A model generated the notes under the pieces. The model did not search any database, was not told where the DNA came from, and saw only the letters and a list, made by a program, of their open reading frames with translations. This document shows positions 21,309 through 29,850 of a DNA stretch of 32,000 nucleotides, piece after piece. This DNA comes from Bacillus subtilis subsp. subtilis str. 168 (GTDB lineage Bacteria > Bacillota > Bacilli > Bacillales > Bacillaceae), in NCBI RefSeq assembly GCF_000009045.1, contig NC_000964.3, forward strand, positions 2,190,001 through 2,222,000. The letters run 5' to 3'. A program made the translations under genes and the position numbers. How positions within the stretch are numbered: position 1 is the stretch's first letter; every line of letters begins with the position of its first letter.

Positions 21309-21845
21309 TTATAAGATGTGATCTATTGACTCATGTAATAAATGCTTGTTTTTTGTTAAATATCCCCTCGCCCAAGGCTGTATGTTGTATGCAAAATAAG
21401 AACCACGATTACTAATATTAGAACTTCTATAAATAATCTTTAAATGTTCTAATTCCTGAGCTGTCCCATCAGTTATACTTAATTCCACAGACCGAACATC
21501 GTCAAAGATGTAGGGGCTTAATATTTGTTTTTCCCTCCTATTAAGATTTCGGAGTCTTTCTTTTTGCAGTTTATAACTGTATTTTTGGTCAATTTTATTT
21601 TTTATCCCCAAACTTATCCACCAAATAAAGTGAGATAAAATGAAACTGGTTGATGCTAAGAAAACAAGCCCTAGGTAAAGTTTATAGCTATTTATAGCAT
21701 CTTTTATACCAAGTGTTTTTCCTAATCCAACATTCCCTAACCAAAGCCCAATTCCAGAAAAAACTGCTAGTCCCAATAAATATTTAGGGCTCAGCTTAAT
21801 AATGTCACCTACCCATGAAGGACTTTTTTCATTTTGGTCACTCAT
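21309..21845 (-). CDS. yopH: Membrane protein (2-3 TM) with a cytoplasmic C-terminal domain, 178 aa
   Basis: Track ORF trimmed to ATG 21845 (MSDQNEK...) after GAGGTGG. The architecture is reminiscent of SieB-type exclusion proteins, but this is weak. Confidence 0.65.
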
Positions 21846-22566: not shown

Positions 22567-22746
22567 GTGGAAGAGAAATACGAAACAAACGGATATGACA
22601 CTTCAATCGTATATGATTACAAAGAATATCCTGATGTAAAATACGGCCGCTGCGACAATTGTGATTACACTTTGTTTAAAAGCTCTGTGAAGAGTGGAAT
22701 ATTTTTACGTGAATGCAGAAGGTGTGGCATGAAAAAGAGCATTTAG
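22567..22746 (+). CDS. Small zinc-ribbon protein, 59 aa
   Basis: Untracked. GTG 22567 follows AGGTGAT. Contains CDNC...CRRC and is followed by a good terminator. Confidence 0.5.
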   Translation: MEEKYETNGYDTSIVYDYKEYPDVKYGRCDNCDYTLFKSSVKSGIFLRECRRCGMKKSI

Positions 22747-22847: not shown

Positions 22848-23078
22848 TTGCTAAAAGTTGCAAAAATTTCGGTTTCTTGCATTGTATTAGTCTTGTGCAT
22901 ATACTCATTGTTCAATCAAAATGAATTATTGTTGATTGTTGTGCAATTATTTGTTGCCGCCCTTTTATCATTAGTCGGAGTTGAAGCGATATTAAGCAAA
23001 CAAAAACTGTCCGAATATTTACTGTTTGGATCAGCAGCCTTCTTACTTGTTGTAAACGGTGTGAAATTCATAATTTAA
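22848..23078 (+). CDS. yopE: Small membrane protein (3 TM), 76 aa
   Basis: TTG start after AAGGAGTGA. It converges on yopD with a 4-nt gap. Confidence 0.65.
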   Translation: MLKVAKISVSCIVLVLCIYSLFNQNELLLIVVQLFVAALLSLVGVEAILSKQKLSEYLLFGSAAFLLVVNGVKFII

Positions 23079-23082
23079 TATG

Positions 23083-23478
23083 TTAATTTCGTAGGAATAT
23101 CGAATCCCAAAACCAATAAATAAACGCAGCTACAATACTCATAATGTAATACTCAAAGCTTCTGAACATGGTAAGAGCATTTGGCGGATAATCAACAAAC
23201 CAGAACAAAAACACAGCTGAAAAGGCCACTGCAATATAAATTAAAAAATTGATCAAACTGAATTTTCTGCGCCTTCTTCTTAGCCACACTTGCAAAGGGG
23301 CAGCAAACACCAAGTAAGTGATTAAAGCGTAAAATGCAATGATGGCAATTGTGACTAATGCTATTGCCATAAATCCAGAGTAAACAAACAGATACAGACC
23401 AAAAATTAGACCAAATGACAAACTTGAAAACGCCAGAGTATAAACATAACTGTTTAACGCTTTTTGATTGAGGCTCAA
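23083..23478 (-). CDS. yopD: Integral membrane protein (4 TM), 131 aa
   Basis: TTG start after GGAGGTG. Confidence 0.7.
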   Translation of the reverse strand: MSLNQKALNSYVYTLAFSSLSFGLIFGLYLFVYSGFMAIALVTIAIIAFYALITYLVFAAPLQVWLRRRRRKFSLINFLIYIAVAFSAVFLFWFVDYPPNALTMFRSFEYYIMSIVAAFIYWFWDSIFLRN

Positions 23479-23535
23479 ATCAGCACCTCCGCTTGTTTCA
23501 CATTTCCCTTTAAAATCGTAGTTTTTAGATTTCAG

Positions 23536-24864
23536 TTACAGTTGGTCTTTAACAACTGATCTATATCTAATTAAAAAGGCCTCTAGTCTCCCCAACTCTG
23601 TTTTATGGTAATCATGATGAGTCCCTTCGGTTTCTGGAAATAATGGATTTTTGATAGGAAGCGATTCTGGTGAGTCCTTATGACTTTGGAACGTTTCCCA
23701 AGCTACGGGGTCAGATATTTGGAATGTCTCGCCCAATAACGAACAATGTCCACTGTCTTTTCTTTGCCTAACAGGAATAGCATAATTCTTATATAGCTTG
23801 TAATTTTCAATTGTTTGTCTGTTAATCTTAGAAGACAAATAACAGATTCCCCAGTATTCCGAAGACTCTGTCTGTTTAACCCATTCAAGCAAAAATTGAG
23901 GAATGATATATTCTGGTTTAAAAATGTCTTTTTGTTTTTTTACTCTAATTAGGCATGCAGATATTAAAATCCATGTCATAAAGTATGCATTAAATTTATA
24001 TATTTTTCTTCTAAATGTTATTTCAAAAAATTTCTTTAGATTATCTGCCAGTTCCGTAGGTGAAACACTTAAATCCAGAATTTTTATATCTTCATCCTCA
24101 AGGTGAAAAACCGAAGTGTAGGTAGTATTTAAGTCAGGCCTTCCTAGTTCTTCCCAACAAACAAGTGATGAACTTCCAAGGTAAAGACATGGAAATCCTG
24201 GTATACTAAAACGATTTGTGCGTATTATTCCTCTCTTCTCAAATGGTATATGAAACATATCATCTTTAGAAAAAACCTCTGTGTTACTGGTTCTCATTCT
24301 AAAGAATTTACAAGGAATACGAATACTATCAATGTTATATAAGAGCAGCTCTTCAATGTTAACCTCTTCAGAAAAGATATTCATTCCTTTATCAAATTCA
24401 GCATATGCTAAATGCACATAACCATCTAAGTAAAGTTCAATTGTTTTAGTAATTTGTTGCGCAAAAGATTCTATCTTTGTGATTTTTGATGAATCGAATG
24501 ATTTTCTATTTGGTAGCTTATGCAATTCTTCTATATATTCTGTATAAACATTCTCCATAAAAGCATCTAAATCATCCCCACCCGTTCTTTCTATTGGAAT
24601 ATCGCATTTATCAATAATAAAACTTAATATTGGATCTATTTCAATAGTCCATTCAATTAAAATGTCTAACCTTTCTTTATTTGAAAAGGTGCTGGTGTTA
24701 ATTTTTTCCTCCCCAATAACATCATTGGTGTTTTTGTCTATAAATTCAGGTTTTACTGTTAACTCTTTAAAAATATCAAATGCAAGCTCTTTCAAAGAAT
24801 CATTAATTTCCTCATGTTTCGATAATTCTTTTTTTAGCCTTTTAGCTTTTCTATACAAATCCAT
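23536..24864 (-). CDS. yopC: RES-domain protein with about 200-aa N-terminal extension, 442 aa (candidate NAD-targeting toxin/effector)
   Basis: SD AAGGAGAA. IIRTNRFSIPGFPCLYLGSSSLVCWEELG plus WGICYLSSKI...NYAIPV fit the R-E-S signature and spacing of RES domains. This was read by eye only. Confidence 0.6.
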   Translation of the reverse strand: MDLYRKAKRLKKELSKHEEINDSLKELAFDIFKELTVKPEFIDKNTNDVIGEEKINTSTFSNKERLDILIEWTIEIDPILSFIIDKCDIPIERTGGDDLDAFMENVYTEYIEELHKLPNRKSFDSSKITKIESFAQQITKTIELYLDGYVHLAYAEFDKGMNIFSEEVNIEELLLYNIDSIRIPCKFFRMRTSNTEVFSKDDMFHIPFEKRGIIRTNRFSIPGFPCLYLGSSSLVCWEELGRPDLNTTYTSVFHLEDEDIKILDLSVSPTELADNLKKFFEITFRRKIYKFNAYFMTWILISACLIRVKKQKDIFKPEYIIPQFLLEWVKQTESSEYWGICYLSSKINRQTIENYKLYKNYAIPVRQRKDSGHCSLLGETFQISDPVAWETFQSHKDSPESLPIKNPLFPETEGTHHDYHKTELGRLEAFLIRYRSVVKDQL

Positions 24865-24971
24865 TTATGTTCTCCTTATTAATTTTTCACCTTTTCCATA
24901 TAAGTACGATTTTATGTAGACCTGGAAAACTTGTAATTCCTTCCTATGCTTGTAACTTTAGTATACCATTT

Positions 24972-25199
24972 TCATCCTGAGTGATCGATATGGTTATGGC
25001 TTTTTTCGAATATCAGCAATTCCTGCAGCTCGATGTTTAGGTATGTACAGACTTTATCTAACAGATCTCTTGGATACCGCTCCATTTCGTCATTATAAAG
25101 CTTTCTGACAGTTGGATACTCATGATCAATATCTCTAGATAGCTTCCGGATACTGATCTTTCTTTCGTCTATTATGGACTTTAAATTTGATCTAATCAT
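24972..25199 (-). CDS. yopB: XRE-type HTH protein, 75 aa
   Basis: The HTH is [22 protein letters not shown]. It lies upstream of the RES-domain gene. Confidence 0.75.
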
Positions 25200-25256
25200 A
25201 ATTCCACTCTTTTCATTTGTCTTTTATTGATACCTTATAGTAATCAACTGATACAT

Positions 25257-25282
25257 AAAAAAGACCAAGATAAGACTTGGTC
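25257..25282 (-). terminator. Intrinsic terminator about 180 nt downstream of yopA
   Basis: On the minus RNA: GACCAAG-ucuuau-CUUGGUC followed by UUUUUU. Confidence 0.7.
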
Positions 25283-25459
25283 AATAATGCATAAATCTAA
25301 GTTCGTTTTATCGTTCTTATTCGTGATCTAAATCGAAAACCGTTTAAACCTTTTTAACTTCTTACAACATAGATACTTAGTCAAAAGCAAATGTTTTTTG
25401 TATGGCAACTCTGAGAAATTTTTATCGCCAACTGACTGTAAATCCTTATAAAGACATTT

Positions 25460-26785
25460 TTAATTGTCTCTTGTTTTCCAAGGGACAAATTCATATACTC
25501 CTTCTATTATAGGTACCTTTAAACGGTTTACATAACTTCCTTCATATCCCAATATTCCAAGTGTTAGTAATTCAAGATACCAAACACCAAGATAAAGTAC
25601 ATGGAGCTTATCTATCGGATTGTCAAAATCAAGTTCCCTTGTAGGATGGACTATCTTATTCCTAAATACAGTAAAAAGGTGTGGGCCATCGTCATAATTA
25701 TCCTTAATGTCAATAAAGAGTTTTGGTATTGATAAGTCAATTGAAAATCTAGATAATATTTCTCTAAATTTCTCTGCTGCATTCATATACTTATATTTCG
25801 ATTTACTAATATTGGATTTTCTGTCTACAATAAGATACACCCACGCCAAAGTTTCCAATGCAACCTGAACAGATACCACCTTGTTTTCTACTATACTTGA
25901 TGAATGTGCTTGGGAGTACCAACTCAACACTTCCCATAAAACTTTATTCCAAAAAGGATCTTCTTGCTTCTCAATCACCTTTGGAAATAAATGTTCTAAG
26001 GATGGAGATTTTTGTTTTGGAAACCAAGTAATATTATTAGTCCAGCCATCTATTAATGGAACTTGGTATTTACTCCATATTACCTCCTCGTTGTGGTATC
26101 CTTCCAATGTAGGGATAGCAACATGTCTACCTGCTGAAAAGGATAATAACCAATAAAGCCCTGAAATAAGTGGTTCTACTTCTTTAGTATCAAATAATTT
26201 ATCATCCACTCTTTTTAAATATCCCACATGTGTTATTAAGTATCCACCCGAATTTTTTAATCTATCAAAGATTTTTTTGTTTGAATAGTCATATCGCTTA
26301 TCCAAAATTATTTCCCAATCTTTATATTTTAATTTTGTTCTCCCTGAAAATTTAAACCTTCCATGCACAATCCTTCTACCTAAATCATTCACGAAGTTAA
26401 CCACCGTGAATTCCATTCTATTCACTTTAGTTTCAGCTGAGGTTAAAATAGATCGTTTTAGTATCCCTGATACTTTGTTCCCTTTACTTCCGTCTGTTAT
26501 ACCTGAAATAAGAACTTCAGATTTCATAAATCCAGGTACATTAATCATCATATTATTACTTTTCATTGCCTTTTCAAATTCGAAAAGCTTGCTAAGATTG
26601 CCTGAAATGGCTCCTTCAAATATTAGTCTAGCTTTTGGTAAAAATGCAATTTTAACTTCTCCCAAGATTTCAAAAAAATCATCAGCAACTTCAATTGTAA
26701 AGTGGCCGGTATAGATTTTAATCGGTTCATTAATATCGTACTCTAAAAAGGAGGATTCAAGAGCTATATTTTCCAAATTTATCAC
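25460..26785 (-). CDS. yopA: Large protein with a C-terminal HEPN-like RNxxxH motif, about 438-441 aa (candidate abortive-infection RNase)
   Basis: Track ORF. The start is GTG 26785 (inside AGGTGA) or TTG 26776. The FRNKIVHPTRE motif lies near the C-terminus within a helical region. Confidence 0.6.
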   Translation of the reverse strand: MINLENIALESSFLEYDINEPIKIYTGHFTIEVADDFFEILGEVKIAFLPKARLIFEGAISGNLSKLFEFEKAMKSNNMMINVPGFMKSEVLISGITDGSKGNKVSGILKRSILTSAETKVNRMEFTVVNFVNDLGRRIVHGRFKFSGRTKLKYKDWEIILDKRYDYSNKKIFDRLKNSGGYLITHVGYLKRVDDKLFDTKEVEPLISGLYWLLSFSAGRHVAIPTLEGYHNEEVIWSKYQVPLIDGWTNNITWFPKQKSPSLEHLFPKVIEKQEDPFWNKVLWEVLSWYSQAHSSSIVENKVVSVQVALETLAWVYLIVDRKSNISKSKYKYMNAAEKFREILSRFSIDLSIPKLFIDIKDNYDDGPHLFTVFRNKIVHPTRELDFDNPIDKLHVLYLGVWYLELLTLGILGYEGSYVNRLKVPIIEGVYEFVPWKTRDN

Positions 26786-27132
26786 CTAATTATTTTCTCA
26801 AATTTTAAAGTCTATTATTTAAGTTCTTCATTACTTTTGCAATTCCTTCACTAAGGAGGTCATTCCCCATAGAGTTCCAAACCTGCTTCTTTTCTTTTAA
26901 TTCTCTGTCCCTAATTCTATGCGATTATTTAATGAACCTGTCTTCTTGAAGATCAATCATGACCATCTCCAATTTTGTTCTGTACAGCTTTCACTATCCA
27001 TATTCTATTTAAAATATGCATTTTATTTTGATATATATCTGAAGCTAAACATTCTTTATTCAAGAAAAGAATCGCTGCTTTGAACTATTGTGACTCATTT
27101 AAAACGGTATAATCACTTGTTAAAGCTAATTC

Positions 27133-27966: not shown

Positions 27967-29199
27967 TTATCTCTGGTTCTCTAACCAATCCATTAACAGC
28001 TTTCTCATTCGTGATGATGGGACATATATATTAATATCCTGTCCATTTCTTATAGCTGATCTCCAAATCCATTGAATCATCTCAGATAAAGCAAAATTGT
28101 CCTCGTTTATGATTATTCCCTTGGATCTAAAATAATCATCAATTGCAGGATTAACGAATCTGTTTATTGAATAAACCAAAGATCTTTTGTGACTGTATTC
28201 GTTCGTTGCTTTGATGTTACAGGCTAAAAAGCCTTTCGTATAACCTTTCCCACTTAGTTTACTTTTATGTGATTTAAAAGTTGTCCAAAGATTACCCTTA
28301 GACTTTGATTTAAGTATATTCTGGTAGTAATTCAGAATATTATTCTTAAGCCGTTTATGTAACACTGAACGTTTTTCAAACCAGTTTTTTGATAATGCAT
28401 AATAATCATCACCAATTTTATTCAAGTCACCTTCATATATTTTAATTTTATGTCTTAGGACATCCTTCTTTGCTTTATCAAATTGCCTACTGTGCTGCAT
28501 TAATTTATAACTGTCATTGTCTTTGACTACTGCATAAAGTTCATATTCTATTCCGTTAATGTCATAATAATATTTCTGAATCTGAGCATCAAACAAATAT
28601 GTAAGATTATAGACCTGTTTAAATTGGGCAAAGATGTCTGCAGGAAACTGCCAAAACAATACAGACTCATTATGCAAAATTAAGTTTTTACTCTTGGCCA
28701 AATGTTTAAGTGTTTGGAACTCTCCTTTATATTCCCTATTAAGATTTCTTTCTTGTTCATCATTCCAAATGATTGTGCCATTATTGTTCTTAATCCATTC
28801 ATTTTGGAACAGCATATCCAGATCATCCTTGGATATATTTAATTTCTTAACCACTTCCATAGTTTCATCCAGGATAAGAGTATAATTGCCTGAGTAAATC
28901 AATTCTTTAGTTGTTTCATTAGCCATACTGAATAAAGCATGAGTTGTTACAATGTCATTGTTATCTGCTAAATGTTTATGTAATGAATCCAGTTTATAGA
29001 GCGTTTCCCCTTCCTCACTATGTATTTTTGGTTCGTAAAACTTTCTATTCGTACATGACCTCTTTATTCTTGTTACCTCATCAAGATATGGTGTGATAAA
29101 GATAAAATGCTCATTCTTTGGTGCCTCATTCATCATCTTAATAATGTAAGTTGTTTTACCAGATCCCATAATAGAATCGATAACTTTAACTCTTTCCAT
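27967..29199 (-). CDS. yonV: P-loop NTPase with an SF2-helicase-like N-terminal ATPase core, 410 aa
   Basis: SD AAGGAGGA. Contains Walker A MGSGKTT, DIVTTHALF (motif Ic-like) and Walker B LILDET. No second RecA-like domain is recognisable. Confidence 0.7.
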   Translation of the reverse strand: MERVKVIDSIMGSGKTTYIIKMMNEAPKNEHFIFITPYLDEVTRIKRSCTNRKFYEPKIHSEEGETLYKLDSLHKHLADNNDIVTTHALFSMANETTKELIYSGNYTLILDETMEVVKKLNISKDDLDMLFQNEWIKNNNGTIIWNDEQERNLNREYKGEFQTLKHLAKSKNLILHNESVLFWQFPADIFAQFKQVYNLTYLFDAQIQKYYYDINGIEYELYAVVKDNDSYKLMQHSRQFDKAKKDVLRHKIKIYEGDLNKIGDDYYALSKNWFEKRSVLHKRLKNNILNYYQNILKSKSKGNLWTTFKSHKSKLSGKGYTKGFLACNIKATNEYSHKRSLVYSINRFVNPAIDDYFRSKGIIINEDNFALSEMIQWIWRSAIRNGQDINIYVPSSRMRKLLMDWLENQR

Positions 29200-29513: not shown

Positions 29514-29765
29514 TTAGTGTGACTTGTTTCTTAGTTTAAGGAATACACAATAGATGATCCATAACAATATGGCAATGATACATGTGACAACAAAAATTGT
29601 GTTGATTAGCGCCTGTCCTTCGCTGCTGAAGTAATCTTTGATGAGTTGAAACATTAAGAATAAGCCAATGAATGTGATATGGGTAAACCATAATGAGAAT
29701 CGTTTCATGTTTGCAATGTGCTTGATCATGTTATAATATGGGTAGGAACTAAAGGAGAAGTTCAT
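29514..29765 (-). CDS. yoyJ: Small membrane protein, 83 aa (second toxin of the yonT locus)
   Basis: Track ORF with two TM helices. It sits immediately downstream of yonT, as I recall for yoyJ. Confidence 0.7.
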   Translation of the reverse strand: MNFSFSSYPYYNMIKHIANMKRFSLWFTHITFIGLFLMFQLIKDYFSSEGQALINTIFVVTCIIAILLWIIYCVFLKLRNKSH

Positions 29766-29850
29766 TCCCCTTTAGCTTAGCTCTCATCGGCGTATACGTT
29801 GGCGTTGTCTCTTTGGTCGGAGCCGCTTGCGTATACGCTTTTTCTTTTTG
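29744..29850 (+). ncRNA. Antisense RNA over the yoyJ 5' end and yonT 3' end (SR6-type type I antitoxin); ends approximate
   Basis: The plus strand carries an extended -10 box, TGtTATAAT (29729-29737). Two palindromic GCGTATACG copies (29790-98 / 29829-38) can pair, followed by TTTTTCTTTTT. The inferred length is about 100 nt. Confidence 0.55.

Follow-up and report, generated by a model that had tools for sequence, protein, structure and literature searches.

Xre-RES toxin-antitoxin systems, among them MbcT-MbcA of Mycobacterium tuberculosis, ParT-ParS of Sphingobium, Res-Xre of Pseudomonas putida and NatT-NatR of Pseudomonas aeruginosa, pair a RES toxin of about 160 to 190 amino acids (aa) with an antitoxin encoded by a tightly coupled gene, and to our knowledge nearly all that is understood of RES enzymes concerns their part as the toxin in such two-gene modules. 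MbcA neutralises MbcT through its C-terminal region, which plugs the toxin cleft and whose C-terminal residues are required, and in MbcT itself the Y58A substitution abolishes toxicity and E69A leaves only limited toxicity. Here we describe a locus with the same gene order, a helix-turn-helix (HTH) gene immediately upstream of a RES gene, in a 32,000-nucleotide (nt) stretch of the chromosome of Bacillus subtilis subsp. subtilis str. 168 (NC_000964.3, positions 2,190,001 to 2,222,000; hereafter the window), where yopB precedes yopC. A preliminary description of this sequence had read the two genes as a candidate type II toxin-antitoxin pair of the Xre-RES class, comparable to ParST or MbcTA. 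The sequence comparisons reported here, which are the new evidence on this point, suggest that the pair is most likely a juxtaposition and not a dedicated module. yopB appears to be the conserved anchor of a swappable cargo slot rather than a dedicated antitoxin, so that yopC is most likely a stand-alone phage-exclusion candidate.

The window corresponds to Bacillus phage SPβ (SPBc2) in reverse complement, with positions 23000-27000 being 100% identical to 69449-73449 of the SPBc2 record (megablast). Both open reading frames (ORFs) lie where they had been placed and have the sizes given for them. yopC (23536-24864, minus strand) starts at an ATG and encodes a long-form RES-domain protein of 442 aa that matches phrog_7835 (E = 3e-137; function not annotated), and yopB (24972-25199, minus strand) encodes 75 aa with a Cro/C1-type HTH domain, as had been recognised (HTH_26, aa 5-66, E = 3.6e-17). 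Chance ORFs are ruled out by the detection of 863 yopC homologs and 90 yopB clusters, and the yopC family, with at least 863 detected members, spans Bacillota, Bacteroidota, Acidobacteriota, Planctomycetota and other phyla. The RefSeq labels for the two genes, "RES domain-containing protein" for yopC and "helix-turn-helix transcriptional regulator" for yopB, are already public, and a homolog of yopB is named "Putative antitoxin YopB" in one NCBI record. Literature searches found no experimental paper on yopB or yopC, in agreement with the preliminary description, which knew of none for the pair; reviews of SPβ name three toxin-antitoxin systems, and yopBC is not among them.

The peptides on which a RES domain had been proposed for YopC (IIRTNRFSIPGFPCLYLGSSSLVCWEELG, WGICYLSSKI and NYAIPV) are all present in its translation, and comparison at the level of the family supports the assignment. 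Taken as a single sequence, YopC matches Pfam RES (PF08808) over aa 210-347 (profile positions 17-126 of 157) with E = 1.4e-4 and a score of 22.4 bits, just under the gathering score of 23.2 bits, so that this match is borderline. The Pfam check suggested at the outset thus narrowly misses the cutoff for the protein itself, and it is the homologs that lend the assignment support: RES was matched at E ≤ 0.01 by 33 of 41 aligned YopC homologs (best E = 1.6e-8), and PF08808 is precomputed for several of them. An AlphaFold2 model of the whole chain, built on the 41-homolog alignment, reached a predicted local distance difference test (pLDDT) score of 89.8 and a predicted template modelling score of 0.89. 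When this model was used as a Foldseek query, the top 3 matches in the PDB were the RES toxin ParT (6d0h/6d0i; probability 0.90-0.93, template modelling score on the target 0.53-0.60, E = 0.12-0.34), followed by weak matches to the cholera and LT toxins, which are ADP-ribosyltransferases (ARTs). A library of viral structures returned weak and mostly unannotated matches, polyvalent-protein ARTs among them. At the sequence level, a profile of the full-length family recovered only designed helical proteins from the PDB, matched through a helix carrying a YxxGxPxxAY motif, and a RES-only sub-profile was needed to reach MbcT (6fkg), its sole match among 177,635 PDB sequences and non-significant by itself (E = 2.2).

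The residues expected of an active site are highly conserved. Profile alignment places Y228 of YopC on Y58 of MbcT and E239 on E69, the spacing R218-Y228-E239 matches R47-Y58-E69, and R191 may be the counterpart of MbcT R27, an equivalence inferred and not aligned. Across 65 independently aligned sequences (Bacillota, Bacteroidota, Acidobacteriota, Planctomycetota and others), R191, R211, R218, S220, Y228, E239 and N360 show no variation, and position S344 holds either serine or threonine. YopC shares the Arg, Tyr, Glu, Ser and Asn positions of the RES/ART fold with the Xre-RES toxins. RES, in the description of Iyer et al., is an ART whose R-S-E triad became R-Y-N (PMC9503650). The yopC family retains all three R-Y-N residues, with N replacing the ART glutamate. 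Together, the family-level Pfam matches and the invariant signature residues indicate that the RES domain of YopC is real, divergent and, as judged from its conservation, under selection as an active enzyme, with a chemistry presumed to resemble that of the characterised toxins.

YopC differs from those toxins in its size (442 aa, against a family median of about 375 aa and about 160-190 aa for the Xre-RES toxins) and in the parts that account for it, namely an N-terminal helical domain that is obligatory, a C-terminal helix and the KPEYIxPQ insert. In the alignment, aa 1-85 (24610-24864) form a helical N-terminal extension found in Bacillales long forms only, and aa 86-185 (24310-24609) form a family-wide helical domain with an LP...YxxGxPxxAY motif and the invariant residues P90 and G148. 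The predicted RES/ART-fold catalytic domain occupies aa 186-400 (23665-24309) and includes the family-specific invariant motif KPEYIxPQ; its assignment rests on Pfam, the alignment, the RES-only profile and Foldseek, and the roles of its residues are given by analogy with MbcT and by the R-Y-N account of RES. The C-terminal helix (aa 419-441, 23542-23610; all four segments on the minus strand) begins at Y419, invariant in the 65 sequences, and is predicted as helical over residues 423-441 in the AlphaFold2 model. Typical family members have about 365-375 aa and can be aligned to YopC residues ~86-442, with ~109 aa preceding the RES domain against 180-220 aa in the long forms. Since most homologs start near YopC residue ~85, the "200-aa extension" seen as unusual in the preliminary description divides by origin, about half being a family-wide helical domain and half (aa 1-85) specific to the Bacillales long forms.

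A phmmer search with YopC aa 1-185 against 1.84 billion representative proteins gave 12 matches, nine of which were yopC-family proteins with a RES domain (eight of ~440-470 aa and one 305-aa fragment); the other three were two short fragments and an unrelated 1954-aa repeat protein. The family matches always held the region at the same N-terminal position and none was a fusion to another effector, and the idea of a shuffled sensor module was rejected on this ground; with the confident whole-chain model, this speaks for YopC as one integrated protein. We also rejected a fused DUF2384-like cis-antitoxin, for which there was no MbcA or ParS match and only generic helical bundles were recovered; Foldseek likewise gave nothing for the N-terminal domain, which matches no known domain. 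A "sensor" or "cis-inhibitor" role for the domain remains conjecture, if a reasonable one. The best genomic match to YopC outside the B. subtilis group was a long form on a contig assigned to Streptomyces sp. NPDC058103 (L012, 4001-5314; 42% identity over residues 3-432). Long forms are otherwise confined to Bacillales, which makes this placement taxonomically unexpected; it could stem from horizontal transfer or from an assembly that is mislabelled or contaminated.

We then compared YopB with the antitoxins of the known systems. Beyond the HTH_26 domain, Pfam detected no Xre_MbcA_ParS_C/DUF2384-type domain, or any second domain, in YopB even at E ≤ 1, and thus YopB lacks the C-terminal toxin-binding domain of the Xre-RES antitoxins. 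The two genes are also not inherited together. Megablast found yopB DNA conserved at ~90-98% in about 20-21 records of SPβ-like phages and yopC only in SPβ itself, and a yopC homolog was present in only 3 of 66 yopB-bearing viral contigs (81%, 42% and 39% identical), with other genes standing between yopB and the yopC homolog in one of the three. In the closest case (L115), the 81% identical homolog begins ~116 nt after yopB, and at least six contigs without a yopC homolog carry YopB alleles 100% identical to the one found here. Separation of the genes is seen in other prophages as well: the HTH gene lies 2.1 kb and six to seven genes upstream of the yopC homolog in B. licheniformis prophages, and one 210-aa gene intervenes in prophages of the B. 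amyloliquefaciens group.

The same two frameshifts were found in the yopB homolog of three independent viral contigs, L156 (4980-5205), L158 and L160, which identifies this homolog as a pseudogene; L156 nevertheless has, behind it, an intact yopC homolog of 455 aa in which all catalytic motifs are present. In this contig a -10-like TATACT element that is otherwise conserved (see below) reads CATACT, and a 56-aa ORF and the intact yopC homolog follow directly; the alteration could be a compensatory promoter-down change and is a single observation. Among genomic yopC homologs, surveyed at 64 loci from other bacteria (62 upstream and 63 downstream neighbours), no Xre-type HTH family occurred in more than two of the neighbours on either side. 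Indirect evidence comes from a secondary source (PMC8156514) that draws on the screens of Kobayashi 2003 and Koo 2017 and gives 18 essential but non-universal genes for strain 168: the antitoxin genes wapI, yqcF, yxxD and yezG are among them and yopB is not. yopC might be silent in the lysogen, which would weaken this argument. Several independent lines of evidence thus argue that YopB is not the antitoxin of YopC.

What yopB does accompany is a variable region. Nucleotide conservation around the gene breaks off sharply ~70 nt beyond the stop codon, and megablast boundaries together with an alignment of nine phages define a conserved block in the yopB-yopC spacer (24898-24971, minus strand) that is independent of the downstream cargo. 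Within it, AAAATGGTATACTAAAGTT (24972-24954) is invariant in the nine phages, including two whose sequences are fully divergent ~45 nt later. The 107-nt gap (24865-24971) was correctly reported to contain a TATACT (24965-24960), which we find to be part of an extended -10-like element, TGgTATACT, at 24968-24960 (TG at 24968-24967). A second promoter-like pair, ATTACA-17-TAAAAT (24937-24909), emerged from a promoter scan and is kept in 7 of the 9 aligned phages, and yopC has a ribosome-binding site of its own, AAGGAG (24872-24877, minus strand), 7 nt before its ATG. RNA folding gave no convincing structure in the spacer (z = +1.25). On the other side of yopB, a terminator-like hairpin with a T-run (25263-25282, minus strand), found by scanning and annotated as a stem_loop in the SPBc2 record, lies between yopA and yopB and sets the yopB-yopC-yopD unit apart from yopA.

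Downstream of yopB, a yopE/yopF anchor is kept in 45 of the 66 contigs, and the 1.1-4.6 kb between the anchors hold cargo that differs in every phage inspected, each of nine annotated phages having different genes. Recognisable cargo in the slot includes a KAP-family NTPase in Goe12 (PADLOC candidate PDC-S49), HIRAN and DUF1643 in SPβL3 and RES in SPβ, and at the position of yopA phi3T has an Mrr-type endonuclease (Mrr_cat) and B. licheniformis prophages have AbiH. Some of the cargo is thus recognisable as defence-type, and most of it is without annotation. The SPβ region carries at least one recognised exclusion gene, since yopH (21309-21845, minus strand), 1.7 kb downstream of yopC and on the same strand, matches the SieB superinfection-exclusion protein (PF14163, E = 3e-44). 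The setting in a prophage accessory region named in the preliminary description is thus borne out, in the form of a variable cargo slot in SPβ-like phages.

The simplest reading of this arrangement makes yopB a small, conserved regulatory gene heading the slot and the conserved block the promoter of the cargo, its operator or both; the promoter-like block probably drives whatever cargo follows, and YopB may regulate the slot promoter. Two known arrangements are comparable. As in the P2/P4-like defence hotspots, conserved flanks (here yopB and yopE/yopF) bracket cargo that varies from phage to phage and includes defence-type genes; as with Aca-type regulators and the C-proteins of restriction-modification systems, a small conserved HTH gene, here with its promoter-like block, accompanies accessory cargo, although aca lies downstream of the cargo and yopB upstream. 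The yopB slot itself is confined to the SPβ-like phages of the B. subtilis group. These data provide evidence, new here, that yopB anchors a variable cargo slot equipped with what looks like a conserved promoter.

The neighbourhoods of genomic yopC homologs contain BamHI restriction-modification genes, type I and type III restriction genes, TIR, PLD nuclease, STAND NTPase, Uma2 and DUF4145 genes, integrases and transposases. No neighbour family was shared across the 64 loci except within a clade of seven Bacteroidota members. Many homologs follow an ORF of ~220 aa, in some loci overlapping the start of the RES gene, but a conserved upstream partner was rejected because these proteins belong to unrelated families (DUF4145, Uma2, PIG-L, CoA-transferase and TonB_C). 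The Bacteroidota clade (L024, L028, L032, L039, L042, L050 and L082; for example L024:1764-5032) has a module made of a GHKL ATPase (HATPase_c_3, ~505 aa), a 220-aa protein without Pfam match and a long-form RES protein, whose genes overlap or are virtually contiguous (-14 to +1 nt), indicating translational coupling, and which adjoins DpnII or D12-methylase restriction-modification, HNH and AAA_21 genes. This module is a candidate for a multi-gene defence system built on the yopC effector family. Taken together, the comparisons offer evidence, also new, that the yopC family represents a long-form variant of RES that does without a partner and has apparent ties to defence islands.

A defence or abortive-infection role for the yopC region is plausible on this evidence. 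With defence neighbourhoods, a prophage slot and an invariant active site all pointing the same way, the best-supported model is that of a stand-alone exclusion effector, and we consider it somewhat better than an even bet that YopC is a stand-alone long-form RES effector of abortive infection or superinfection exclusion that would attack NAD+ or ADP-ribosylate a target. Under this model, the RES domain (aa ~186-400) would consume NAD+ by phosphorolysis or hydrolysis, or modify its target, by analogy with MbcT, Res and ParT. The N-terminal helical domain and the C-terminal helix, packed on the RES domain, would presumably silence the enzyme until a trigger arrives, so that silencing in cis would replace a separate antitoxin. 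yopC would then be one of many interchangeable cargo genes between the conserved yopB and yopE/yopF, and YopB would be the small Cro/C1-type regulator at the head of the slot, beside the promoter-like block. Enzymatic activity, autoinhibition and a defence function are proposals for YopC, as is control of the slot promoter for YopB. The proposed logic, a regulatory region joined to an NAD+-consuming domain on a mobile element, resembles that of SpbK (a TIR-NADase of ICEBs1) and DSR2 (a SIR2-NADase of B. subtilis), both active in the arms race between B. subtilis and SPβ; the likeness is a functional inference only, and the catalytic fold of YopC is RES/ART, neither TIR nor SIR2.

Several observations weigh against this model. 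YopC alone scores marginally under the Pfam RES cutoff (22.4 against 23.2 bits), and the matches to RES toxins are individually weak (E = 0.12-0.34 in Foldseek and 2.2 with the profile). PADLOC-DB v2.0.0 has no model for YopC: the PADLOC check proposed in the preliminary description returned no match at all for YopC, YopA or YopD and only weak generic HTH matches for YopB. A search of the yopB-yopC spacer for operator-like repeats gave weak repeats only and nothing convincing, the association of yopC homologs with defence islands is guilt by association and suggestive only, and an ART carried by a phage could act in host takeover or counter-defence instead. Literature searches found no paper on a long-form RES defence protein. 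We regard as tentative, and on balance doubtful, the more far-reaching proposal that the yopC family is a widespread, antitoxin-less, single-gene anti-phage system (a RES NAD+ phosphorylase or ART), silenced N-terminally and triggered by phage, and that the yopB slot is a dedicated hotspot for the exchange of defence cargo, a Bacillus counterpart of those of P2 and P4, with YopB as the common brake on the conserved cargo promoter.

The alternatives to a stand-alone exclusion effector differ in what YopC would act upon and with whom. An offensive or counter-defence ART, which would be produced early in SPβ infection or induction and would ADP-ribosylate a host protein in the manner of T4 Alt and Mod or destroy an NAD-derived immune signal or its substrate, agrees with the phage origin and ART-superfamily fold of YopC, with the polyvalent-protein ARTs among its weak viral structure matches and with ParT, which according to the match description shows that RES enzymes can modify proteins and not only degrade NAD+; SPβ-like phages moreover hold counter-defence genes (Gad1/Gad2, Nip) in dedicated variable loci. 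We nevertheless think it unlikely, because most family members are found in bacterial chromosomes, with restriction, TIR, STAND and nuclease genes as neighbours, and not in the early regions of phages, because the slot-mates in related phages are defence-like (the KAP NTPase of PDC-S49, the Mrr-type endonuclease and AbiH) and because SieB is nearby. The possibility that the yopB-yopC locus is itself the Gad1/Gad2/Nip locus was ruled out, as this known counter-defence locus of the SPβ group is at phi3T_120, elsewhere in the genome, a location that also counts against the offensive or counter-defence reading.

Less probable again is a type II Xre-RES pair in which YopB would bind and neutralise YopC and autoregulate the operon, its loss or degradation leaving YopC free to deplete NAD+. 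Such a pair would be in keeping with the adjacency of the two genes on the same strand, HTH gene first and RES gene second, which is preserved in one close relative (L115), with the arrival of yopC homologs of three divergence levels in yopB-headed slots, with the database name "Putative antitoxin YopB" and with the phage-borne RES and HTH toxin-antitoxin modules described in general terms (PMC9503650). Against it, YopB is HTH-only and has no toxin-binding C-terminal domain, 63 of the 66 yopB-bearing viral contigs have no yopC homolog, the L115 allele shows no co-variation since it also occurs in contigs lacking a yopC homolog, L156 keeps an intact yopC homolog with a frameshifted yopB, genes intervene in the B. 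licheniformis and B. amyloliquefaciens-group prophages, and genomic yopC homologs have no conserved HTH neighbour. Unlike the tightly coupled Xre-RES genes, yopB and yopC are 107 nt apart, with an independently conserved promoter-like block and a separate Shine-Dalgarno sequence for yopC, which is not the layout of a compact bicistronic operon, and yopB is missing from the list of essential genes that includes the antitoxin genes wapI, yqcF, yxxD and yezG. The antitoxin domain, the co-inheritance and the compactness of the operon that the toxin-antitoxin proposal called for were thus all lacking. Lowest in our estimate, and very improbable, is a partner other than YopB, either a unit with YopD or an antitoxin encoded elsewhere in SPβ. 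yopD (23083-23478, minus strand; a UPF0715 membrane protein, Pfam E = 2e-55) does begin 57 nt after yopC on the same strand and before the next terminator, and the Bacteroidota module, where the RES gene is coupled to those of the GHKL ATPase and the 220-aa protein, indicates that the yopC family is able to work in multi-gene modules. yopD homologs were, however, present in 14 of the 66 slots, none of which also had a yopC homolog; the yopC homologs of L115, L133, L156, L004-L008 and L011 have no yopD-like neighbour, and no neighbour family is common to the 64 loci outside the seven-member Bacteroidota clade. The distribution of yopD argues that it is a separate mobile cargo gene. Weaker copies of yopD (~35% identity) are sometimes found upstream of yopB.

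NADase domains, TIR and SIR2 among them, are known examples of NAD+-targeting immunity, and if the stand-alone model of YopC is true, a partner-less RES family in defence islands would extend this form of immunity to a further catalytic fold. It would also raise the question of how a potentially lethal NAD+ phosphorylase is silenced in cis. The question is directly testable: strain 168 carries SPβ as a resident prophage, deletion and cured strains are available, and there is a panel of SPβ-like phages whose slot cargo differs. What was already known comprises the public RES and HTH annotation and, in general terms, phage-borne RES and HTH modules (PMC9503650); the present analysis corrects the annotation "antitoxin YopB", which is already spreading through databases.

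Other features of the window were noted in the course of the analysis. yopA (25460-26785, minus strand) is very rare, with 5 protein clusters in 5.8 billion and presence in 1 of the 66 yopB-bearing contigs; it had no match in local Pfam, PADLOC or PHROGs, precomputed tags for PF26308 and PF27216 exist, and a fold search was abandoned because the AlphaFold2 model, built from a 4-sequence alignment, was too poor to interpret (pLDDT 45.8). Between yopD and yopE, on the opposite strand, a 59-aa Cys-rich ORF (22567-22746, plus strand; CxxC...CxxC) corresponds in size, strand and position to the 59-60-aa PF26372 (DUF8096) genes that close the slot in L004, L006 and L008, which are B. licheniformis and B. 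amyloliquefaciens prophages; it had no match in local Pfam and is at most a putative equivalent of those genes. yonV (27967-29199, minus strand) encodes 410 aa with a Walker-A-like N-terminus and a sub-threshold match to the ResIII helicase/ATPase family (E = 7e-4; 20.0 against 22.5 bits). The only Rfam match in the window was the SR6_antitoxin RNA at 29746-29849 (plus strand; 128 bits, E = 7.5e-24), SR6 being the antisense RNA of the known type I toxin-antitoxin system yonT/yoyJ/SR6 of SPβ.

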